Assembly (NCBI GenBank): GCA_964583975.1
Contig: CAZOXU010000010.1
Location: 9,779 to 73,778 of the forward strand
DNA from: an uncultured Planctomycetales bacterium
GTDB lineage: Bacteria; Omnitrophota; Gorgyraeia; Zapsychrales; Fredricksoniimonadaceae
Length of the DNA stretch: 64,000 nucleotides
Direction of reading: 5' to 3'
The notes below the pieces were generated by a model that did no database searches, was not told the origin of the DNA, and saw only the letters and a program-made list of their open reading frames with translations. Shown here piece by piece: positions 8,407-57,735 of this stretch. Position 1 is the first letter of the stretch; each line of letters begins with the position of its first letter. Both the position numbers and the translations under genes were made by a program.

Positions 8407-8427
8407 TATAGATTAAAAGGCCTATAG

Positions 8428-8486
8428 GGGCAATCCCCCGTGGTTGCCCAATGATAAAAGGGCAGGCACAGGGGCCTGCCCCTACG
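8428..8486. repeat. REP-like element, family A, two-hairpin module, copy 1
   Basis: GGGCAA-TCCCCCGTGG-TTGCCC, then a spacer, then GGGCAGGC-ACAGGG-GCCTGCCC-CTACG. The second hairpin recurs at 16764-16790 and both recur at 23808-23864. Confidence 0.8.
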
Positions 8487-8657: not shown

Positions 8658-10883
8658 ATGAAATATAAAAATCTTACAAGAATTTTAATACTGTCCTTTG
8701 GGATGTTCTTTTTGTCTTCCAATATTTATGCTGCAGTGAATAACATGTCAGTGGTGCCGTTATTCGAAACTAAACGACCCGTCAAAACATGTAATCAAAA
8801 AGTAGTTTTCGCTAATACCTATCCGGAAGGAGTTACGCCAAGCGCACTATATTATCTGTTGGCTTGGAAAAATCCTGCCGTACCAATGCCAGCAGCCTGT
8901 TTAAGAGCCCCTGATCTTTTTGATAATTGGGGAACGGGTGCGATGTGTAAAGATAGGTTTATGGTGCTTGGAAACTCATTGCCGGAAAAATATTTAGTCC
9001 AAGCTAATCTTATGTCAGGATTTCCTAGTTTTTATTTAATGGCCATAGCTTTTACTAATCAAGATGTGTCATATTCAGTACCTCTTGCTATAGATACCAA
9101 TACAGATCCTGCAGCATGTACTTCTGGAGCGCCAATTCAATACTTGGTTCCTGGTAATGGTCTTCCAGCTTCACTTAATTTGGGCTTACAGGGAGCCCCA
9201 TCAAATCGTTATTACACTAGAAAGGTCGTCGGACGTGTTGTCCCATTGGAAGATTATATTATAGGGGGAACATTGAGCGATGGCTCTGTTGTTCCATCTG
9301 AAGTCGAGTTAAGTGTTGTTGCTTTCCATCCCGCTGGAATTGCCTACGTTGATTTTATTAATATATCAAGGGATCATCCAGCGGAAGCTGGATACAGAAG
9401 AGTTTATACAAAAACGATCGATTCTCATGGTATTGAGGCCTATGTTGTCAAAGCGAGATCTGCAGATCTTCTTGCTGGAGGCAACGATATAAAGATTGTT
9501 ATAGTGCCTAATGTTGGAGAAAAGTTGGTTATAGGTAATGATCTAACACCTGCTACAGCCGAAGACGGTACGGCAAAAATAACTATTTTTAATAATAAGC
9601 CAAATTCCTTGGGAGTTCAACCATTGCCTAGAACTAAAATTGCTATTCTTCCAGGGGGCGGTTATTCCTATGTATTTGATCTATCAACCCTTAACGCACC
9701 TGTTTGCGGAAGTGTATCTCGTCCTTGTAATAATATGGGGAGCGCTATAGAAGCAGCCAGAAGAGCAGCTTATATTTCTGGATTCGGGAACGATCTAAAA
9801 GGTGCTTATCTATATTATGTTGGACCAGGAACGGATACTTTTGGAGCTGTCCAAAACTACGGTAATCATACAGATGCCAGCTATCCTTTAATTATTCAAG
9901 GATTTGGAAATAAAAAGACAGTATTTGATAGAACCGCTTTAAATCCTAATGTTAATGCTTCTTTCTGGGGACAAATGGAACACGTCATCATTAAAAACGT
10001 GACTCTTAAACATCCTGGATTAGGAGAAGGACCTACTCCTGGTCTGCCAATCATACAGAGCGCCGGTATGCAATCTATAAGAAGATTGACCTTAGTCGAT
10101 GTTTATGCCAAGGGTCGAGGTATAAATCCTCCTGACTGTAATAGAATTGGCTATAGCCCAGCAGCTAGCGAAGTTGGTTTTGGCGCTGGAGGAATCGTAG
10201 AATTCAATGCCATTCGCTATTATAAAGAAAGTAACAGAGAAAATAGTTCAAGGACAAATTCTCTCTGGGCTTTTATATCCAATCATTCAGGAATAGCATT
10301 TAATGACAAGGGTATTTTCAATAGTGGAGTGTCTAATATTACAGGTGGAGAAGGAATAATTACATACTGTACTAATGATATGCCGCATCCAGACCAGAAT
10401 TATAATACACTAGGCAACCATGTTACTTCAGGTTTTTATGGGCTTGAAACAGCGTCCGGATCAACTCGCGCCCAAGGGCTTTTTATACCTTCACCTACGC
10501 ATGATGCACGAGGAGGTTATTTTCAAAATGGTCATTATAGTTCTCCAGGTAATAACGCTTTAATGCTTGGGAGTATATTTGATGTGGACTTTGTAGATAG
10601 TGAGTTTTTGGGTACCAATGGTAATCCATTAGAAAGCGGTAAAAGGTTTCAATCTACGGATAGCAGTGCGGCGAATGCTGCACACTATGATCCAACGTAT
10701 GCTTCTAATCCAAATAAAGGAGTAAGATTTTGGAATTCTTTAGAACCCCTTGCTGGTTCTACACAACTAGCTCCATTCCCATATTCTCAAGGAGCTACTC
10801 AAGTAAACGTCCCTTCACTTTATAATAACGCTGAACACACCTATACATCTGCCATCTATGTTGATTATACGGATAACCCATAG
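8658..10883 (+). CDS. secreted protein, paralog 1 of a three-member family with a predicted pectin-lyase-fold / parallel beta-helix
   Basis: 741 aa with an N-terminal signal peptide (ILILSFGMFFLSSNIYA). It shares domain order and motifs with the next two genes: VPL..(CN)QK, VPGNGL, SNRxY..K(V/P)(V/L)(G/A)R(V/W), a CG...PC..M.(S/G)AI-type N-cap, NNK. AAAGGA RBS. Confidence 0.7.
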   Translation: MKYKNLTRILILSFGMFFLSSNIYAAVNNMSVVPLFETKRPVKTCNQKVVFANTYPEGVTPSALYYLLAWKNPAVPMPAACLRAPDLFDNWGTGAMCKDRFMVLGNSLPEKYLVQANLMSGFPSFYLMAIAFTNQDVSYSVPLAIDTNTDPAACTSGAPIQYLVPGNGLPASLNLGLQGAPSNRYYTRKVVGRVVPLEDYIIGGTLSDGSVVPSEVELSVVAFHPAGIAYVDFINISRDHPAEAGYRRVYTKTIDSHGIEAYVVKARSADLLAGGNDIKIVIVPNVGEKLVIGNDLTPATAEDGTAKITIFNNKPNSLGVQPLPRTKIAILPGGGYSYVFDLSTLNAPVCGSVSRPCNNMGSAIEAARRAAYISGFGNDLKGAYLYYVGPGTDTFGAVQNYGNHTDASYPLIIQGFGNKKTVFDRTALNPNVNASFWGQMEHVIIKNVTLKHPGLGEGPTPGLPIIQSAGMQSIRRLTLVDVYAKGRGINPPDCNRIGYSPAASEVGFGAGGIVEFNAIRYYKESNRENSSRTNSLWAFISNHSGIAFNDKGIFNSGVSNITGGEGIITYCTNDMPHPDQNYNTLGNHVTSGFYGLETASGSTRAQGLFIPSPTHDARGGYFQNGHYSSPGNNALMLGSIFDVDFVDSEFLGTNGNPLESGKRFQSTDSSAANAAHYDPTYASNPNKGVRFWNSLEPLAGSTQLAPFPYSQGATQVNVPSLYNNAEHTYTSAIYVDYTDNP

Positions 10884-10911
10884 AGGTTTTAAGATTTTAA
10901 GGAGCATAAAA

Positions 10912-12972
10912 ATGCAAAACAGCAAATTAGTCAAATATTCTTATATAACTATAGCTGCAATTTGCTTGTCATTGTTATTTGCTAGCCCAAGCTTTGCGGT
11001 GGATCGAAATGATTTAGAGTTGTTGCCACTTGTGGATTCTAATAATATTGAAGCCTGTGGGCAAAAAATTAATAGTGTGATTGACTATAAAGTTGAAAAC
11101 TTAGAGGTGAGCAAGACTTTTTTATTTGCAGCTATAGATGATGGTACTATGCCTCAGATATGTAAGGACAATCCGTCAGGAAGTTCTCCAACGGGAGTTC
11201 CATGTGTTTATCGATTTCCTTATCAAGCTGAATTAGGTGATTCGCATATGCTTAGATTTTTAGCCCAAAATCAACCGAATGTCTATCTTTTTGTAGCTGG
11301 TTTAATCAATGCAAGTGAGGACAGAGTTTATTCTAAAGTGAAATCTTATAGATTTACGCCTTGTACACATACAACTCCAATGGTTAATATAGTTCCAGGA
11401 AATGGTTCGTTCACTGAAGATACCGTAGCCCCTCGTGGAAACGCATCGAATCGTTTATATAGTGTGAAACCACTTGCTAGATGGATTTCTTCAAATTATG
11501 GAATTTTTGGTGATGCTGAAAGCTCGAGCGAATTTGTTGTCAGTGTCGCAACTCGTGCCGATAACATTGAAAAAGTGGTGTTTGAAGTAAGAGATGTTAA
11601 TGATCATATCGGGCACGTAAATGTGCTAGCTTCACAAAAACGCATTGACCTAGAGGCAGGAGTTGAAGCTTATGTTGCAAAAATAAACAAAAATGCTTTC
11701 GATGCTGGAAAATTAACCATAAGAGCTTTTGTTATTCCAACCGTTGGGCTGCCTCTTAGCATGAGCGGTCCCTTGACTAGCCCGACACAAAGAAGTACGG
11801 ATGAACATGAAATATCTGTTTATAACAATAAGGATTCTAGCATTGTCAGGAAACATTTTTATATTGAAACCACTGGAGCAGACGTGGCAGGGTGTGGAAC
11901 TTTGGCGTTTCCTTGCGCAACGATGAATGGTGCAATTGATAAAGCTATGAATGCTGGAGTGACTGATTTTTCAGGTGCAACCTTGCATTTTGGTGAAGGA
12001 ACCTTTGCCTATGGTTGTACAGATCGGCGCTATCCAGGTCCACATACGGATAAGGCCACTATGATTTTTGAAGGGAAAATGACATCCAATGGTAAGAAAT
12101 TAACAACGATTAATCGAGGACTTGATTTGTCTCCGTGGGGTTGGAATGGTCAACAAATCACCGCGGTAACAAAAGCCGTATTTAAGAATTTTCTTATACG
12201 AAAAGATCCAACTAGTTCAAATCCTAGGGCAGCTATTATAGGAATAGGGGATAATTATGGTGTAGACACATCATTTTTAGTGGAGAATATTGATTTTAAA
12301 GGCTTGGGCAGAAATCCTGGAACATGCTTAACTGAAAATCTTCCATTTTCAGCAATATATGCAGAAATTCGAGATTCTTATATGGCTGGTTTCCAAGGAA
12401 ATGGAGCAGGGGAAAAAAATATTAGAAATTTTGTTTCCTGTTCTAGTATTGCATATTCTAATTCTGCAACAATTTTAAATTCTGCAGCGAAGGTGGATCA
12501 AACGGTTGGAGGTTGTACTATTCCTGGAAGCAGTCCACATGGCGATCTTATGAAATCATATAACGGGCATTTATATGTGAATGGATTCTGGTCTACACTA
12601 GAATCCTTAATTGTCTCTCAAGGACTATTTATTCAAGATTCTGATGTTGATATTAATAATGTTCATGTGACAGTGGGTGGGCCTAATGAACCTTCAATAG
12701 CAGCTGCTTTTTTATTTGGAAAACCAGATGGAGCTCCTGTTACAAATGTTACTTTTAGAAATAGCACTTTTGACAATGGGCCACGAAGAAATACCAGACT
12801 CGAAGCAGGGTTAGGAGCCTATCCTGGGACATCTGTAATAAGATTTATAAATACTCCTGGGGATAGCAACACGCCTTTTCTAGTGCCGGATAATGCGCAT
12901 ACTTGGGCCAATACATCATCAAATCCTTATTATTCCTCAGCGAGCGGTTTGGAATACTCTAGAGAGCAATAG
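10912..12972 (+). CDS. secreted protein, paralog 2 (parallel beta-helix-like)
   Basis: Start trimmed to the ATG at 10912, preceded by an AAGGAG RBS. Signal peptide present. Closest paralog is the third gene (HVGHVNVLASQKRID, KKDPTS(S/P)NPR, GLGR(N/D)PGTCL(T/S)E). Confidence 0.75.
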   Translation: MQNSKLVKYSYITIAAICLSLLFASPSFAVDRNDLELLPLVDSNNIEACGQKINSVIDYKVENLEVSKTFLFAAIDDGTMPQICKDNPSGSSPTGVPCVYRFPYQAELGDSHMLRFLAQNQPNVYLFVAGLINASEDRVYSKVKSYRFTPCTHTTPMVNIVPGNGSFTEDTVAPRGNASNRLYSVKPLARWISSNYGIFGDAESSSEFVVSVATRADNIEKVVFEVRDVNDHIGHVNVLASQKRIDLEAGVEAYVAKINKNAFDAGKLTIRAFVIPTVGLPLSMSGPLTSPTQRSTDEHEISVYNNKDSSIVRKHFYIETTGADVAGCGTLAFPCATMNGAIDKAMNAGVTDFSGATLHFGEGTFAYGCTDRRYPGPHTDKATMIFEGKMTSNGKKLTTINRGLDLSPWGWNGQQITAVTKAVFKNFLIRKDPTSSNPRAAIIGIGDNYGVDTSFLVENIDFKGLGRNPGTCLTENLPFSAIYAEIRDSYMAGFQGNGAGEKNIRNFVSCSSIAYSNSATILNSAAKVDQTVGGCTIPGSSPHGDLMKSYNGHLYVNGFWSTLESLIVSQGLFIQDSDVDINNVHVTVGGPNEPSIAAAFLFGKPDGAPVTNVTFRNSTFDNGPRRNTRLEAGLGAYPGTSVIRFINTPGDSNTPFLVPDNAHTWANTSSNPYYSSASGLEYSREQ

Positions 12973-13058: not shown

Positions 13059-13181
13059 AAAATTCGGCCTCAAATTTGACTTTGACAACCAGGCATGTTA
13101 TGGTTGCCATAAGAGCAGTTAAAAGGCATACATACGATAATATTATAAGGAAGGTAAACTAAATTTTTGGGGGAGATTAAA

Positions 13182-15218
13182 ATGCTAATAAAGAACCTAA
13201 TCAGAAGCTCTTACATGACAATAGCTGCGTTTTGTTTGTCTTTGTCATTGACCAGCTTAAGTTATGCGGATTTAGAACTTGTTCCTTTGTTAGATTCAGA
13301 ACATATTAAAGCATGCAATCAAAAAGCAACCTTCATTGTTCATAATAATACTGAAAATGAAACGCCCGGCCTAACGGTTTTATTTATGGCCTTTGCTGGA
13401 ACTGTTTCAGAACAATGTTTAGCTAATCCTTACGCAGGAAACTGTGTAAATTCATATCCGTACAGGCTAGTGTTAAACAATAGTGGTTTATACACAATCC
13501 CAGCTGCACATCTCCCTAATTTAGTACTATGGGTTGGGCAAGTATTAACTAGCACCGCAAATCCAACACCACATGTGGCAGTTTCAAAAACTGTAAACTT
13601 TAATTTTGAAGCATGCCCATATGATCCAACAACAATTACTAAGGTAATCCCAGGCAATGGATTATCAACAGAAAATGTCACGCTTCCTCGTGGAAGTGGC
13701 CGATTGGCTAATAAACGGGTCGTAGCCAGATGGCTTTCCAAAATGAACCAAATCTTTGGCGACTCAGTATCTCGTGATAAATTTACAATTTCTGTAGGCA
13801 CACGAAAATCGGATGTATCAAAGGTTGTCGTAGAAGTTAGTGATTCTACAGGGCATGTTGGTCATTTAGACATTCTGGCTTCTCAAAAACGTATTGATCC
13901 AGATACAGGAATTTGGGCCTATGTAACAGAAATAGATAAGAATGATTGGGCTGCTGGCGATATAACCATAAAAGCAAAGGTTATTCCTACCAATGGCATA
14001 CCTTTTGTCATGGCTGGTTCTTTTGCTGCAGCAAGTAATACACAAAGATTAGACAATGAATTTGAATTGAAGATAGTTAACAATAAAAACAATGCTATCC
14101 CAAGATTAACTCACTTTGTAAATGCCAATGGTTCTGATACTCCAACATGCGGAACTACTCAAACTAATGCTTGCGCTAGTATGGATGGAGCTATCAAAAG
14201 CTTCCATAATCTTTATCCCAACAGTAAGTACGATGGTTGGAAAATTAAATTTGGTCCAGGAAATAACTTTGTATGGGGGTCAAATTATACCTACCTAGGT
14301 CCTCAAACAGAAAAAGTAGGATTTTTAGTCGAAGGGACCTTGTCTGATCTTGGTGAAAAACAGACAGTCTTTACCAGAGCAGTTGATTTAACCTCTGCGG
14401 GATATCCAGGCAATATATTGCTCACATCAATGGTAGAGGTGAAGGATGTAAAGTTTAAGAAAGACCCAACCTCTCCTAATCCGCGATCTTCCATTGTTGG
14501 TCCGTCTTGGGGTGGGTATCTTGGTTTAGAAAATGTGGAATGGATTGGTTTAGGGCGAGATCCAGGCACATGTTTATCTGAAGGATTTAGTACCACCGGC
14601 CTTATCGATGCAAGAAGACTAATGCTTAAAAATTCTTTAACTAATGGACAGTTCTTTAGTGTTGTTCAAAGTGCTGTTCTTGCTAACTCAAGCATTAGTT
14701 TTATTGACTTTTCATGGCTTGCTGGTGCAACTAGCCAGGTCAATCATGATGTCATTAATTGCCCTCCCAATGGAAATCCCCATGGTGATAAAGTAAAGCT
14801 TCAAGGCGGACATGGAGCTATATGGGGCTATAAGGATGGGAAAACCTTCGTCAATCATGCCCAAGGCTTATTTTTACAGGGCAATGATATATTGGTAGAA
14901 GACTCCTACGTTAGAATGGGTGATCCTGGTCAGCCTGCTATAGGAGGTAATCTATTTTTAGCAAATTATTCTGGAGGCTTCTTAGATAATATTCTTATGG
15001 ATAATGTTAAGACTGATGCTGGATGGACCAGATATGGTTGGATGGAAGGTGGTTATGGGCCGTTACCAACCAATAATGTTATAAAGTGTAATAACTGTAC
15101 TTTGTCTACTTATCCTAACGAGCCAGGAGGCACGTTACCTTCACAATCTGTATCGATAGGTGCGTGGAACTATGTATCACCCTATACGGGTGTTGAATAT
15201 TCAACAAGCAGTAATTAA
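13182..15218 (+). CDS. secreted protein, paralog 3 (parallel beta-helix-like)
   Basis: Start trimmed to the ATG at 13182 (GGGGAG RBS). Signal peptide present. Conserved blocks shared with paralog 2 throughout. Confidence 0.75.
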   Translation: MLIKNLIRSSYMTIAAFCLSLSLTSLSYADLELVPLLDSEHIKACNQKATFIVHNNTENETPGLTVLFMAFAGTVSEQCLANPYAGNCVNSYPYRLVLNNSGLYTIPAAHLPNLVLWVGQVLTSTANPTPHVAVSKTVNFNFEACPYDPTTITKVIPGNGLSTENVTLPRGSGRLANKRVVARWLSKMNQIFGDSVSRDKFTISVGTRKSDVSKVVVEVSDSTGHVGHLDILASQKRIDPDTGIWAYVTEIDKNDWAAGDITIKAKVIPTNGIPFVMAGSFAAASNTQRLDNEFELKIVNNKNNAIPRLTHFVNANGSDTPTCGTTQTNACASMDGAIKSFHNLYPNSKYDGWKIKFGPGNNFVWGSNYTYLGPQTEKVGFLVEGTLSDLGEKQTVFTRAVDLTSAGYPGNILLTSMVEVKDVKFKKDPTSPNPRSSIVGPSWGGYLGLENVEWIGLGRDPGTCLSEGFSTTGLIDARRLMLKNSLTNGQFFSVVQSAVLANSSISFIDFSWLAGATSQVNHDVINCPPNGNPHGDKVKLQGGHGAIWGYKDGKTFVNHAQGLFLQGNDILVEDSYVRMGDPGQPAIGGNLFLANYSGGFLDNILMDNVKTDAGWTRYGWMEGGYGPLPTNNVIKCNNCTLSTYPNEPGGTLPSQSVSIGAWNYVSPYTGVEYSTSSN

Positions 15219-16763: not shown

Positions 16764-16790
16764 GGGCAGGCACAGAGGCCTGCCCCTACG
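16764..16790. repeat. REP-like element, family A, second hairpin only, copy 2 (nuoM-nuoN intergenic)
   Basis: GGGCAGGCACAGAGGCCTGCCCCTACG, 26/27 identical to copies 1 and 3. It fills most of the 52 nt gap inside the nuoJKLMN transcription unit. Confidence 0.8.
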
Positions 16791-23099: not shown

Positions 23100-23153
23100 G
23101 TTGTTGCCCTAGTTTGTTTTCCCCATACCCATCGGGTATACTTACCTATAATT

Positions 23154-26100
23154 ATGTATATATACTTAAAGAAACCCCTTATATGTCTCCTTTTGTGCGC
23201 TTTTTTCTTCCAAAACTTGGGTTTTGGTCAAGGGACTGCCTCAGCGCAAGCTTTGCCCGAGCCAGGCATATTGCTTGAGCCCAGTGCAGCTTTTTCTCCA
23301 GCCCTGATGACTGGAATGACCATCCATCCTGAAAACCCGCTCGAATTTGATTTCATTGTTGATACCGGAGAAGACCATTTGCAAGGTGAAGAACTTAAAG
23401 CCCAAGCCCAGCGAATGGTGAATTACTTTATGGCAACCTTGACTGTTCCAGAAGATGAAATGTGGGTTAACCTTTCGCCTTATGAAAAGAACCACATCAT
23501 TGCCGATGGATTAAGCGTCACGGAAATGGGGCGTGACATGTTAGCCCAGGACTATCTTTTAAAACAGTTGACTGCCTCGCTCATTTATCCGGAACGAGAT
23601 TTGGGAAAGAAATTTTGGGAAGGTGTCTATAAAAAAGCCCAGGCCCTCTATGGCACAACCGAGGTTCCCGTAAATACGTTTAATAAAGTTTGGATCATTC
23701 CTGATGAAGCCAGCGTCTACAGCAAGGACAATAAAGTTTTTATTACGAATAGTCATTTGAAGGTGATGTTGGAATGCGATTACCTGGCGATGTCAAAACA
23801 AAATGTAGGGGCGACCCCCCGTGGTCGCCCTCAAGAAGGGCAGGCACAGGGGCCTGCCCCTACGGATACCAATATAATGGCCAATCAAATCGTCCGCGAC
23901 TTGGTCGTCCCCGCAATCACCAAGGAAATTAATGAAGGCAAAAACTTCGCCAATTTGCGCCAGATTTACAATTCTATGATTTTAGCAACATGGTATAAAC
24001 GCAAATTACACAAATTTGTACGGGCTGGGTCTCCCAGCCCTAACGCAAAGGGTGGGGAAACCCCACCCCTACAGAATTACATCGACCATAACAAAACCAA
24101 CGGCATTGAAATAGATGATAAAACCATCAAGGAAAAAATCTACAATCAATACCTGGCAGCATTCAAAAAAGGTGTGTTTAATTTTATTAAAGAAGACTCT
24201 TTGCCTACAGGCCAAACCATTCCTCGCAAGTATTTTGCCGGAGGCTTGGTCGCTCCAAAAGTGATCAAAGATGCAGCTACGCTATCTCCTGACTATTTAA
24301 TACAAGCCCAACGCAATCCGAAGGTGGTTGTTAGTGTTGATGCGCAACCGTTGAAAGAAGGTGTGGCTGATCAATCGATGGTATCAGAAGTAATACAGCT
24401 TTTATTTGGTCTTGATCAAAAGATCCTCGAAGAAAATTTTGGGTCAATGGACAATGTTATTGCTGCTGGCAAGGCCATGGCAGCTCTGAAACGATACGAT
24501 TGGAAGTCGGTGAGACATTTATTGAAAGGCGACGCTTTAGAAGTAAGGACTAAAATGCGTAATGAAGTTCGTACCGGTCAAAATAGCAGCACTCGCTTTG
24601 GAGGCCAGTTGGCGACTGATATTTTATTGGCCATTGGTAAATTTGCAAACTTGAATCCCCCAACTCAAAGTTTTATGTGGGAAGTGTTTAAAGACAAAAT
24701 AAGTAAGCTGCCTTCGGAGGTCGATAAATCGTCTTTGATGATCGGCTATATCGATGGACTGACGTCTCTAGAAGCAATGATTACCTTGGGAACTTTAACC
24801 GAAGATCGATTTAAAGATCCTACAGAAATGAGCACTAATCAAAGAGAAATATTGGCGCATGCTTTAGAGTTGAACCATGGAGATTTTAAACAGGCAATAG
24901 GTTACGTTCGTTGGATTCTTCCAGAAACCGGATTGTCAGATGCGGCGATGGCGGCTAATAAGGCGAAGAAACCATTGTCTGATTTATCCGAGGCAGAATT
25001 AAAAACTGAAATTATAGAACATATCTTTAAAGGGACACCATTAGATGGTGTTATCGATGATGTGCTGACTGTTTTTAATAGACAAGGTGGTTTTAGTGTA
25101 ATCCTTAAGTCTAAGCAAATGGATTTTTCTGTTTGGGATTTTAGCTACAATAAACAAAACATTACTTCGTGTACGTTTACCGGCAATAAATTTCGTAGTA
25201 AATATAATCGGGTACTACTGGGGTCCATTTTGTATTGGGCACAAACACGATGGGGTATGACCCGAGGCAGTGATTGGGCAACAGATCAGAAAGCTGCACA
25301 ATTCTTTGTCGATATTTTTGATGGTTGGGCTCTGCCAGGGCAAAATCCTGTCACATTCAAAAATGCTAGAATTACAGGTGGTTTTTTAATGAGTGTAGAT
25401 CTGACCAAATTAGATCTCGCTTCGCACTGGCCGTTTACAAATTTTGTGAATAAAGATAGGGCGATGGAGAGCCCCCAAGAGAATAAAGAGGCATTGCTAC
25501 GTGAACTTTTTCAAAATGAATTGCGTAAGATGACATCAGGCCTATTGTTTAGAATACTGCACAGATTATCTTTGGTTAATCCTATTCAAGCTGTTGCCCA
25601 AAGAGTAGTTGATTCGATTCTAGAAATGGAAGAATCTCCTCAAAGGGAAATGATGTTAGATTCAATTCGAAATTTCTCGCCTGCAGATTCAAGTAATTCA
25701 CTTATAGATCCAACCGACGCTGTTCTAATTCAAGCTAAACATTATCTCCAGGCTTTTGATTACCGCAGAATGATGCTGGCAGGGGCAATAAATGGCATGG
25801 CTGTATCTCTAGTAGAAGGTGTTCCTTTGTCGAAGACATTTTCATTTGGTGTAGATATTTTGGAAACCCCCAACGGTTTTCGTAGGTTTCAATACCTGGT
25901 TCGAAATGCCATGTTTCATCATGCAGATCATCTTAATTGGGAGCTACAAAAGCAATATCCAACAGATGGGCGCCAGTTAATGATTTTTGATTTGTTGCCT
26001 GATTACGCTAGATTTGGTTTCGATCCACCAGTAATCATTGCTGGTGAAGAGATTTCCAATGTCCCTTACGATCAATTGACTGTTGAGCAAAAAACATTGC

Positions 26101-27974
26101 TTAAGGTTGAAATGCAACGGTATGAGAATCGTGCACGCAAGGTAGCTGAATTCTTAGAAAGATTTCCTCCTCAAGTTGCCAATACGATAATGAACATTAA
26201 TGACGAAGACTTCCGGACACGTTTAACTCGAGATCTCATGAATAAAGATTTTAGCAACGCAAGGCAAAAACTTTTGGAACTCCAAGTTGAGCAAGATAAA
26301 TTAGCGGTAAAGATTGAAGAAATTAGTAGGACTATAAAATTAGAAGAAGCATTGTTAGAAATGAAACTGAGCGGTTCTTATTATCATCCTGAGGCCGTTG
26401 AGGATTTGTTAGAATTTGAAAAAGAACAAGAAAAGTTGATTTTTGAATTATATACGGAAAAGTATAAATCCTCTGATCAGCATGAGTATGTTATACATCT
26501 AATAAGGAATCTCTCAACCGATATCGAAAAACTATCGGCTACTGACAAGGCGATGGTGGCCAGTGGTGTGAAGAAGAAATTATCGGATTTATCCTCCACA
26601 GAATTAAGAGCTGAAATTATGAAGCATTTGATTAAAGGAACACCGTTGGAAGGCGTTGTAACAAATGTGAGAATTATTTCTAACCAAAGCGGAACGTTTC
26701 ATGCCATTTTTGATTCAGATCGATTTGGTACTTTGTATTGGGATTTTACTTATAAAGACCAAACCATTACTGAATTGACAATGACCGAAGGTGTGTTTCG
26801 AAGTCGATATAATCGTGTGCTTTTGGGATTGATACTGCATTGGGCGCAAACAAGATGGGGCATGACACAAGGCAAAAATTGGCCCATGGATCAAAAAGGC
26901 TCAGAGTTTTTCGTGAATGTTTTTAGTGAATGGGCCATCCCAGGGGAAAATCCTGTCACGTTGAATGGCGATAGTATCGCAGACGGTTTTAGTGTTGTAG
27001 ACTTTACCAAATTAGACCTCGTTCGCCACTGGCCGTTTGCCGATTTCGTGAATAAAGACAAGGCGATGACGGGGGAGTATGGCGCTAGTGTTGAGCGTAC
27101 GGCGAATGGTTTTACTGTCCGTTGGAAAGTGGCCTATGATAATATCGTGATCGAGCAATTTCCTCAATTGGTAGATAGTCTTTCAGTTATGGGCCCAGTG
27201 GAAGCCGCACAGAGATTTGCTTCAGGCCAGGAAGCAGTCACCTTATTACAAGTCGGGAATAAAGTAAAAGTATTTAGGCTCGAAGATGCTGAGGCTTTTG
27301 CTGAGAAATATCAGATTGCCGTTAGAATGGGGAATAGAAGTTACCGATTCAAAGGGCACAGGATTCAGCTTTTTGATCAACAAGGAATTATGCTGCAAGA
27401 ATTTGACGATCCAGAGATTCGGAGATTCTTGCTACTAAGAATTCATTCGGTGATTGGCTCTCTTTTAGTCGAAGTAGCTCGCAAAGACGTTCAAAGATTT
27501 ATGATGAAAGTTAAAGCCATGAAAGAAGGAATCACATATCAAGTTGATTTAATGAGTAAAAGTATCAATATACACTTGGGCGGAGTAAATCCTGTTATTG
27601 ATAAATTGACGGGCGCTATTATGCCAGAGGGTTTCCCGCCTACGTTGACAGATCAAGCTTACTTGCTCAGTCGGATGGCGTTGGCTTTGAGGTATACGGT
27701 TTTGGACGAAAGGGAGCAAAAAATCGTACGCCTTCCTTCTATGTCTGAGGTCTTGGCCTACAATCCCGTTGCTGATAATGCAATGACGGCCACCCCCGGC
27801 GGTATCGACTTTAATGCAAAGAACTTGAATTTAAAGGAACAAGGCTCCCCCAGCGAAACAGCATTTAAGCTAAGTGCTGAAAACGATCAAATCAACGGGA
27901 TTCGGCCGGTTATTATCAAAATCACCCCGGTCACCAATCTTCCTCAATTACTTGGGATAGATACCACTAGTTGA
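23154..27974 (+). CDS. giant secreted protein of unknown function (1606 aa) with an internal duplicated domain of about 170 aa
   Basis: N-terminal signal peptide (LICLLLCAFFFQNLGFG). A segment (about nt 24961-25470) recurs at about 26569-27075 with roughly 55% amino acid identity (KYNRVLLG..L.WAQTRWGMT.G..W..DQK). Two GC-rich palindromic repeat elements are inserted in frame (see repeats). Confidence 0.7.
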   Translation: MYIYLKKPLICLLLCAFFFQNLGFGQGTASAQALPEPGILLEPSAAFSPALMTGMTIHPENPLEFDFIVDTGEDHLQGEELKAQAQRMVNYFMATLTVPEDEMWVNLSPYEKNHIIADGLSVTEMGRDMLAQDYLLKQLTASLIYPERDLGKKFWEGVYKKAQALYGTTEVPVNTFNKVWIIPDEASVYSKDNKVFITNSHLKVMLECDYLAMSKQNVGATPRGRPQEGQAQGPAPTDTNIMANQIVRDLVVPAITKEINEGKNFANLRQIYNSMILATWYKRKLHKFVRAGSPSPNAKGGETPPLQNYIDHNKTNGIEIDDKTIKEKIYNQYLAAFKKGVFNFIKEDSLPTGQTIPRKYFAGGLVAPKVIKDAATLSPDYLIQAQRNPKVVVSVDAQPLKEGVADQSMVSEVIQLLFGLDQKILEENFGSMDNVIAAGKAMAALKRYDWKSVRHLLKGDALEVRTKMRNEVRTGQNSSTRFGGQLATDILLAIGKFANLNPPTQSFMWEVFKDKISKLPSEVDKSSLMIGYIDGLTSLEAMITLGTLTEDRFKDPTEMSTNQREILAHALELNHGDFKQAIGYVRWILPETGLSDAAMAANKAKKPLSDLSEAELKTEIIEHIFKGTPLDGVIDDVLTVFNRQGGFSVILKSKQMDFSVWDFSYNKQNITSCTFTGNKFRSKYNRVLLGSILYWAQTRWGMTRGSDWATDQKAAQFFVDIFDGWALPGQNPVTFKNARITGGFLMSVDLTKLDLASHWPFTNFVNKDRAMESPQENKEALLRELFQNELRKMTSGLLFRILHRLSLVNPIQAVAQRVVDSILEMEESPQREMMLDSIRNFSPADSSNSLIDPTDAVLIQAKHYLQAFDYRRMMLAGAINGMAVSLVEGVPLSKTFSFGVDILETPNGFRRFQYLVRNAMFHHADHLNWELQKQYPTDGRQLMIFDLLPDYARFGFDPPVIIAGEEISNVPYDQLTVEQKTLLKVEMQRYENRARKVAEFLERFPPQVANTIMNINDEDFRTRLTRDLMNKDFSNARQKLLELQVEQDKLAVKIEEISRTIKLEEALLEMKLSGSYYHPEAVEDLLEFEKEQEKLIFELYTEKYKSSDQHEYVIHLIRNLSTDIEKLSATDKAMVASGVKKKLSDLSSTELRAEIMKHLIKGTPLEGVVTNVRIISNQSGTFHAIFDSDRFGTLYWDFTYKDQTITELTMTEGVFRSRYNRVLLGLILHWAQTRWGMTQGKNWPMDQKGSEFFVNVFSEWAIPGENPVTLNGDSIADGFSVVDFTKLDLVRHWPFADFVNKDKAMTGEYGASVERTANGFTVRWKVAYDNIVIEQFPQLVDSLSVMGPVEAAQRFASGQEAVTLLQVGNKVKVFRLEDAEAFAEKYQIAVRMGNRSYRFKGHRIQLFDQQGIMLQEFDDPEIRRFLLLRIHSVIGSLLVEVARKDVQRFMMKVKAMKEGITYQVDLMSKSINIHLGGVNPVIDKLTGAIMPEGFPPTLTDQAYLLSRMALALRYTVLDEREQKIVRLPSMSEVLAYNPVADNAMTATPGGIDFNAKNLNLKEQGSPSETAFKLSAENDQINGIRPVIIKITPVTNLPQLLGIDTTS
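23808..23864. repeat. REP-like element, family A, two-hairpin module, copy 3, inserted in frame inside the 1606 aa CDS
   Basis: GGGCGAC-CCCCCGTG-GTCGCCC ... GGGCAGGCACAGGGGCCTGCCCCTACG. The first stem covaries with copy 1 (CAA/TTG versus CGAC/GTCG). It encodes a G/P-rich peptide (GATPRGRPQEGQAQGPAPTD). Confidence 0.8.
24015..24069. repeat. REP-like element, family B (GTAC-GGGC head), inserted in frame in the 1606 aa CDS
   Basis: GTACGGGCTGGGTCTCCCAGCCC ... GGGTGGGG-aaa-CCCCACCC. Same GGGCTGGGT-N-ACCCAGCCC palindrome as the copies at 30683, 33033 and 57684. Confidence 0.75.
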
Positions 27975-30289: not shown

Positions 30290-30325
30290 ATCGTACGGGC
30301 GGGGGGGTGCCCCGCCCGATAATAA
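30290..30325. repeat. REP-like family B variant after the amtB stop
   Basis: GTACGGGCGGGGG-ggtg-CCCCGCCCG, with a GTAC head and a GC-rich palindrome. Confidence 0.6.
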
Positions 30326-30682: not shown

Positions 30683-30723
30683 GGGCTGGGTAACCCAGCC
30701 CGTACACACACATGTGCACGGGC
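30683..30723. repeat. REP-like element, family B, after the glnK stop
   Basis: GGGCTGGGT-A-ACCCAGCCC, then GTACACACACATGTGCAC, then GGGC. Confidence 0.75.
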
Positions 30724-57684: not shown

Positions 57685-57735
57685 GGGCTGGGTGACCCAG
57701 CCCAATTAAAGGCGAGGAGACCTCGCCCGTACAGG
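57684..57735. repeat. REP-like element, family B, between purF and pyrG
   Basis: GGGGCTGGGTGACCCAGCCC, then aattaaa, then GGCGAGG-aga-CCTCGCC, then CGTACAGG. Confidence 0.75.

Follow-up and report, generated by a model that had tools for sequence, protein, structure and literature searches.

Conserved terminal caps and a recurrent D-x-A-M border motif in a family of predicted secreted, modular proteins of Omnitrophota

Omnitrophota encode giant proteins of 10-147 thousand amino acids (kAA) that are organized as multi-enzyme or repeat scaffolds, and the names 'Archaeovorins' and 'multi-enzyme metabolic cluster' long proteins are in use for them (10.1101/2023.11.21.568195; 10.64898/2026.06.07.730766). 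Of the long proteins of the phylum, 94% have a signal peptide or transmembrane helices, and their metabolic domains are predicted to lie on the outer face (10.64898/2026.06.07.730766). West-Roberts et al. proposed that the giants are cleaved, without known sites (10.1101/2023.11.21.568195). The gene described here occupies positions 23154..27974 (+) of a 64,000-nucleotide stretch (the window) of contig CAZOXU010000010.1 from assembly GCA_964583975.1, a genome assigned to Omnitrophota and deposited as an uncultured Planctomycetales bacterium. It encodes a protein of 1606 residues that shares its two ends with a large family and carries an almost private middle region.

The protein is probably a capped scaffold, exported by the Sec route, in which conserved caps enclose interchangeable cassettes that are displayed or released at the cell envelope. 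Its architecture comprises a predicted signal peptide, an N-terminal cap (N-cap) of ~370 residues, a string of cassettes, and a C-terminal cap (C-cap) of ~60 residues; this member has five cassettes, two of which (M2 and M4) are paralogous and stem from an old duplication of a whole cassette. The caps might fold together as one split domain and would provide the common function, that is export past the inner membrane, anchoring, or assembly at the envelope, and the cassettes would contribute member-specific activities in the periplasm or on the outer face. A short motif at the cassette borders, D-x-A-M, may serve as a flexible hinge or as a site of specific proteolytic processing. The features of the gene are as follows.

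23154..27974, + strand: whole gene, 1606 codons plus stop, ATG start; the identical protein is P0001 in a public collection
23154..23243, + strand: predicted signal peptide, aa 1-30, predicted cleavage between ASA and Q (from sequence, hydropathy, and the layout kept in the family alignment)
23244..24368, + strand: N-cap, aa 31-405, with a core at aa 34-364 that ends in RKYF[S/A]GG (from the homologue alignment)
24369..24380, + strand: junction motif 1, DQSM, aa 406-409
24381..24938, + strand: cassette M1, aa 410-595, orphan; no phmmer or Pfam match
24939..24950, + strand: junction motif 2, DAAM, aa 596-599
24951..25466, + strand: cassette M2 (copy A), aa 600-771, ending with junction motif 3, DRAM
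25467..26543, + strand: cassette M3, aa 772-1130, orphan; C-terminal half coiled-coil-like
26544..26555, + strand: junction motif 4, DKAM, aa 1131-1134
26556..27068, + strand: cassette M4 (copy B), aa 1135-1305, ending with junction motif 5, DKAM
27069..27773, + strand: cassette M5, aa 1306-1540, the sole cassette with homologues
27774..27785, + strand: junction motif 6, DNAM, aa 1541-1544
27786..27971, + strand: C-cap, aa 1545-1606, TATPGGIDFN...INGIRPVIIKITPVTNLPQLLGI (from the homologue alignment)

The distribution of similarity along the chain separates the caps from the middle. A homologue search of 5.8 billion protein clusters gave more than 4,223 matches, 119 of them listed, and the listed homologues cover just 21-28% of the query. 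Residues ~1-425 are aligned by all 119 (44-60% identity, E down to 4e-153) and residues ~1525-1606 by 101 of the 119 (BLAST); the ~1100 residues between the caps are not aligned by any of them, apart from a weak match or two, and none of the listed homologues is an orthologue that shares the middle of the query. Head and tail, a quarter of the protein, are common to more than 4,200 protein clusters. Their placement is equally regular: the N-cap begins within a few residues of the homologue N-terminus in every mapped case, and the C-cap is always C-terminal, ending at most 49 residues (median 10) farther from the C-terminus than in the query. The variable middle between them ranges from 371 to 2343 residues, and the family proteins measure 0.9-2.8 kAA.

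The N-cap lies directly behind the signal peptide, and its strongly conserved core is ~50% identical among paralogues. It is recognizable by the blocks WVNLSPYE, TEMGRDMLAQDYxLKQLTAS, FNKVWI, NFANLRQIYNSMILA, and RKYFSGG. The C-cap follows the consensus GGID[FL]N..NLNL...G..PVIINITPVTN.PLLLG, and a GGI[DN][FL] signature is present inside the final 110 residues in 114 of the 120 listed family proteins (query included). Neither cap matches Pfam or NCBIfam, and the N-cap profile has no match among PDB sequences. Among candidate folds of the N-cap, ClyA-family toxins with a template modelling (TM) score of ~0.1 occupied the top rows and were dismissed. The original prediction of a protein without recognizable domains holds for Pfam and NCBIfam searches of the whole chain and for Pfam searches of each module, where no match was found at E<=10; it had overlooked the caps.

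A scan of one genome per GTDB species detected at least 583 loci of the family. The best 80 all belong to metagenome-assembled genomes (MAGs) of Omnitrophota, some of them deposited as 'uncultured Planctomycetales', and the more than 4,200 clusters bear Omnitrophota names wherever the source is named. As far as the best 80 of the at least 583 loci were inspected, the sequences are best read as a large, uncurated family specific to Omnitrophota. MAGs labelled 'uncultured Planctomycetales' that carry the family include those of loci L002, L003, L006, and L007, among others; this is either a matter of labelling or a sign of a wider distribution in the Planctomycetes-Verrucomicrobia-Chlamydiae (PVC) group. 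Several paralogues occur per genome (at least five in OFTM38 and at least four in SMAG_U7936), and tandem family genes are present in at least six of the 80 loci (L002, L007, L010, L032, L041, and L063), where a same-strand upstream open reading frame (ORF) closes with a C-cap shortly 5' of the next N-cap gene. No conserved partner gene was found beside family members across the 80 loci.

The protein is, as judged from its N-terminus, of the Sec-exported type. The sequence MYIYLKKPLICLLLCAFFFQNLGFGQGTASA, followed by QALPEPG, combines a K-K n-region, a hydrophobic core of 12-13 residues, and a cleavage site between A-S-A and Q, and an identical layout ending in A before Q is present in 23 aligned homologues. 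Nowhere else along the 1606 residues does the Kyte-Doolittle mean exceed 1.6, which points to the absence of internal transmembrane helices. Both the long ORF and its signal peptide, as originally described, are therefore retained after re-analysis by hydropathy and conserved layout. After the predicted cleavage (23235-23246), Gln would be the first residue of the mature chain in the query and in almost every aligned homologue (...YA before Q). Elsewhere, such a residue on exported proteins is linked with the formation of pyroglutamate. The start codon is supported by the N-terminal M-x-x-Y-[LF] kept in homologues. An exact TATAAT is located one base 5' of the ATG (cctataattATG; 23143-23156) and a Shine-Dalgarno sequence is not visible; translation initiation of this gene may be unusual.

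Within the middle region, D-x-[A/S]-M occurs at aa 406, 596, 768, 1131, 1302, and 1541, each time at a module border (6/6), and it is usually followed by L, V, T, or A and then by a small residue. The 120 listed family proteins (query included) contain 211 instances versus 34.6+-6.7 expected from shuffles, and the family ORFs of the GTDB loci, an independent set, contain 108 versus 7.5+-2.9; the 23 other genes of the window contain one, versus 1.5 expected. The enrichment in the family is thus 6- to 14-fold. In 40 aligned instances the conservation of D (0.5) and A (0.6) exceeds that of the linker (0.1-0.3). The motif is located in low-confidence, probably flexible segments of both AlphaFold2 (AF2) models, and the median spacing of 241 residues corresponds to cassettes of approximately whole-protein size. 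In P0072 it is placed after the N-cap, directly before enolase, between enolase and a His_Phos domain (phosphoglycerate mutase type), and before phosphoglycerate kinase (PGK), and in P0097 it brackets triose-phosphate isomerase (TIM), malate synthase, and isocitrate lyase cassettes. In each of the four proteins containing it, the M5-type module opens at the motif (query 1302, P0122 651, P0049 954, and P0121 53, the last as DAKM), and it occupies differing positions along these four chains.

The cassettes themselves differ widely in their relationships. When aa 405-1540 were compared exhaustively, by phmmer, with 1.84 billion representative proteins, three matches were obtained in total, to P0121 (39% identity), P0122, and P0049, all of them to M5; M1, M2, M3, and M4 have no homologue in this collection. 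In other family members, Pfam places a broad set of domains between the caps, among them TIM, PGK, enolase, phosphoglycerate mutase, FBPase, transketolase, GDH, alanine dehydrogenase, malate synthase, isocitrate lyase, radical SAM, cytidylate kinase, methyltransferases, HEAT, ankyrin, DnaJ, HATPase_c, response regulators, glycosyltransferase family 5 (GT5)/starch synthase, and PPDK_N. P0072 (enolase, His_Phos, and PGK) and P0097 (TIM, malate synthase, and isocitrate lyase) each string together consecutive pathway enzymes after a single signal peptide and N-cap, apparently for export. Some of the enzyme matches are weak or truncated (the TIM of P0097 from Pfam position 51, the FBPase of P0098 just below cut-off), which suggests that some cassette enzymes may be pseudo-enzymes.

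Cassettes M2 and M4 document duplication and retention of a cassette within one chain. Residues 595-771 and 1130-1305 share 97 of 177 positions (55%) with one gap at an offset of 535 residues; the duplication of ~55% identity that had been noticed in the sequence is far beyond chance (E 4e-63). The duplicated unit is exactly one cassette, from junction motif to junction motif. In nucleotide sequence the two copies agree at 67% of positions (56% of third positions), with a Nei-Gojobori (NG86) dN of 0.34 and dS of 0.97, indicating an old duplication with both copies under purifying selection. The last 73 nucleotides (25394-25466 versus 26996-27068) are 81% identical, compared with 67% overall, and encode VD.TKLDL..HWPF..FVNKD.AM including the junction motif; stronger constraint or local gene conversion could be responsible. 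The coiled-coil-like stretch thought to precede each copy is found before copy B (aa ~1035-1125, rich in E, K, Q, and L and poor in G and P) and not before copy A.

Two mobile-like insertions are present in the head of the gene, as had been predicted, and both are in frame.

23805..23863, + strand: REP-like double hairpin type A, in frame, translated VGATPRGRPQEGQAQGPAPT, in a variable loop of the N-cap
24018..24072, + strand: REP-like double hairpin type B, in frame, translated VRAGSPSPNAKGGETPPLQ

Each comprises two GC-rich hairpins bounded by GTAG/GTAC...CTAC, and type B adds 15 residues that 22 of 23 homologues in the alignment lack. Between genes, near-identical or related copies occur at 8427-8486, 16764-16785, 30683-30701, and 57685-57727, the first being type A and the last two related to type B. 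A REP-like palindrome is also found at 30296-30318; most copies lie just 3' of genes, often as inverted doublets. In other genomes, P0028 and P0031 (variants P0109, P0048, and P0007) carry the translated element GA[TP]PRGRPQEGQAQGPAPT in the same loop; its occupation despite only ~50% identity of the N-cap suggests a preferred or tolerated insertion site. The elements resemble repetitive extragenic palindromic (REP) sequences and REPINs in their GT[AG]G-type head, GC-rich palindromes, inverted doublets, and many mostly intergenic copies, and they resemble Rickettsia palindromic elements in being inserted in frame without breaking the ORF. Elements of the REP type can evidently settle in frame within tolerated loops of a conserved head.

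The surroundings of the gene are largely those of core metabolism. Upstream lie nuoJ/K/L on the opposite strand, followed on the strand of the gene by a GAF-ANTAR regulator, a RelE-like ORF (26.0 bits, just below the Pfam cut-off of 27), and an HTH_3 ORF; downstream are a Zeta_toxin/AAA_33 P-loop ORF, amtB, glnB, type III glutamine synthetase, NadE, GOGAT, CPSase, and PyrG. The toxin-antitoxin-like pair and the zeta-like neighbour named in the original prediction are thus present, and its accessory context is not: nitrogen-metabolism and complex I genes flank the locus and the GC content of the gene (41.5%) is that of the window (42.0%), which argues for core chromosome and not for an island. 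A PADLOC search of the whole protein found no defence-system match. Elsewhere in the window, three tandem paralogous ORFs of 741, 704, and 683 residues (8658-10883, 10858-12972, and 13167-15218, all +) show 24-34% identity (E down to 1e-119) and signal-peptide-like N-termini, with no Pfam match.

Two further explanations of the border motif deserve consideration. A secreted polyprotein, cut at each D-x-A-M by a dedicated protease or by the N-cap so as to release five proteins and the caps, is regarded as rather unlikely. It would account for the position of the motif exactly at the borders of whole-protein-sized cassettes, for the selective retention of D and A in otherwise variable linkers, and for the flexibility of the segments concerned, and cleavage of Omnitrophota giants has been proposed earlier, without sites (10.1101/2023.11.21.568195). 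Nevertheless, no protease was identified, no neighbouring gene is conserved in the 80 loci, and the N-cap alignment contains neither an invariant His or Cys nor a match to a protease family. Nor does the motif fit signal peptidase I, the specificity of which follows an established -3/-1 rule: D at -3 is at odds with it. Alternatively, and still a little less probably, the motif is a scar of gene fusion, its Met being an old start codon, and the chain works uncut. The equality of cassette size and protein size agrees with this idea, as does P0072, where the motif Met lies ~3-15 residues from the Pfam-placed native N-termini of enolase and PGK; however, a relic of a start codon leaves the conserved D at -3 and A at -1 unexplained, the TIM cassette of P0097 does not begin at the native start, and none of the six internal ATGs is preceded by a Shine-Dalgarno-like sequence. 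For the last reason, nested translation from the motif Met is likewise unsupported, and internal starts were rejected.

The remaining alternatives concern the nature of the protein and of its duplicated module. That it is a strain-specific effector or adhesin which a host-associated bacterium secretes and encodes in accessory DNA appears doubtful. The predicted signal peptide, the orphan cassettes, the lack of an orthologue with the same middle among the listed homologues, and the adjoining toxin-antitoxin-like pair and zeta-like kinase would suit such a role, and Omnitrophota are inferred to be host-dependent (PMC10066038), which, together with the apparent confinement of the family to this phylum, makes a role at a cell-cell interface plausible. 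On the other side stand the core-gene neighbourhood with average GC, the conserved caps, which place the protein, with its many paralogues, in a phylum-wide family and show that it is not an isolated acquisition, and the failure to find adhesin repeats, toxin domains, defence-system matches, or a secretion signal or partner of an effector (Pfam, NCBIfam, PADLOC, and the 80 loci). The effector or adhesin profile proposed at the outset therefore remains a guess, compatible with a capped scaffold and without direct support.

It is also questionable whether the two copies of the duplicated module are GNAT-type acyl-CoA N-acyltransferase domains. The AF2 model built from a two-sequence alignment (pLDDT 58.5, pTM 0.48) shows a helix, a four-stranded antiparallel meander, two helices, and two strands, and ~25 of the top 35 Foldseek matches in PDB are GNATs, including SpeG (TM score 0.41), PanZ (probability 0.87, rmsd 4.0, 117 columns), PseH, GNA1, RimI, and VipF; moreover, GNAT is one of the most frequent Pfam families in the long proteins of Omnitrophota (10.64898/2026.06.07.730766). 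Yet the model is poor, no Foldseek match in PDB is significant (every E-value is at least 0.069, the best match), GNAT Pfam models do not match the cassette at E<=10, and hhalign against E. coli RimI gives a probability of 0.4%. The loop Q/R-x-x-G-x-G/A between β4 and α3 is absent and replaced by F-R-S-K-Y-N-R (copies FRSKYNRVLLGS and FRSRYNRVLLGL). The cassette may tentatively be described as having a GNAT-like α/β fold, and the missing acetyl-CoA loop motif makes binding or another non-canonical role as likely as catalysis. A 44-residue PDB match of the repeat profile to the HECW1 helical box (E 0.0011) was judged to be a chance hit. In agreement with the original prediction, no well-known enzyme domain spans the repeat; a weak GNAT-like resemblance is all that was detected. 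Finally, a decaying gene or a gene-calling artefact is very improbable. Two mobile REP-like elements inside the ORF and the 70% of the protein that has no homologue could be read in this way, but the 4.8-kb frame is uninterrupted by stops, both elements are in frame and in variable loops that host such elements in homologues too, dN/dS between the copies is ~0.35, and head and tail are conserved.

Several points weigh against the capped scaffold. Among the 120 family proteins listed, the query being one of them, 48 lack the motif, which also counts against a polyprotein, and the motif precedes the C-cap in just 30 of 114; it is therefore not obligatory. The N-cap model, made from 24 sequences, is poor (pLDDT 55, pTM 0.59) and has no significant fold match in PDB and BFVD. 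Glycolytic-type enzymes in the periplasm or outside the cell would have no obvious cofactor supply, and inspection covered the top 120 homologues and the best 80 of at least 583 loci.

The capped scaffold nonetheless remains the probable reading, and its interest is at the level of the family: this gene is an unremarkable, though orphan-rich, member, and the grammar is the interesting part. Thousands of Omnitrophota proteins are called 'hypothetical' or misnamed after one internal domain (e.g., 'triose-phosphate isomerase' or 'LysM protein'), and they appear to share an undescribed order of signal peptide, N-cap, cassettes joined by D-x-A-M, and C-cap. No description of the caps and the junction motif was found in the literature; an earlier description is possible, as the coverage was incomplete. 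The motif makes a published question testable, namely whether long modular proteins of Omnitrophota are cut, and where, and the cassette contents raise another: why copies of cytoplasmic-type enzymes are exported in a phylum that is uncultured and probably depends on hosts. That caps and D-x-A-M define a phylum-wide 'secreted polyprotein' system is improbable at present. If true, a single signal peptide would direct the export of several whole proteins in one chain, glycolytic and glyoxylate-cycle enzymes among them, and site-specific processing at D-x-A-M would release or display the exported beads. The gene would then yield two paralogous orphan proteins of ~19 kDa with a new or highly divergent fold, and the same code would represent the missing cleavage map for the Omnitrophota giants of 10-150 kAA.

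Several described systems resemble the family in part. Cargo proteins of the type IX secretion system (T9SS) of Bacteroidota carry a Sec signal peptide, often an N-terminal Gln, a passenger, and a conserved C-terminal domain of ~60-80 residues, and a cleavage region precedes the C-terminal sorting domain. The present protein differs in having no match to Por_Secre_tail/TIGR04183, in belonging to another phylum, and in possessing an extra conserved head of ~370 residues. Polymorphic toxins and contact-dependent inhibition (CDI) systems are similar in combining a conserved trafficking end with shuffled modules that vary strongly, in having many paralogues, and in marking the borders of modules by short motifs, for instance VENN in CdiA. 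In those toxins one end is conserved, whereas here both ends are conserved around a variable middle, the cassettes are often housekeeping-type enzymes, and no toxin domain, immunity gene, two-partner or type VI secretion system (T6SS) partner was detected (Pfam, NCBIfam, PADLOC, and the 80 loci); the C-terminus of the query is a conserved C-cap, and the next gene encodes a zeta/AAA_33-like P-loop protein. GNATs, including the two-GNAT effector VipF of Legionella (PDB ID: 6wqc), resemble the duplicated cassette in predicted topology and in the presence of two copies in one secreted protein, and differ in that the cassette lacks sequence-level support and the CoA-binding loop motif.

The closest relatives in design are the Omnitrophota giants. 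They are 10-100 times longer than the query (1606 residues) and its family, and they have many transmembrane helices alternating with extracellular regions, whereas the query has no internal ones. Neither the caps nor D-x-A-M is mentioned in either preprint (10.1101/2023.11.21.568195; 10.64898/2026.06.07.730766). HEAT, glycosyltransferase, and C39 or S8 peptidase domains are absent from the query according to Pfam, and giant-type domains from this list occur in other members of the family. What the giants and the capped proteins have in common is the phylum, the N-terminal signal peptide, and a beads-on-a-string arrangement of unrelated modules with mostly sequence-unique middles, together with a domain repertoire that includes GT5/starch synthase, HEAT, HATPase_c, radical SAM, PPDK_N, and sugar-phosphate enzymes.

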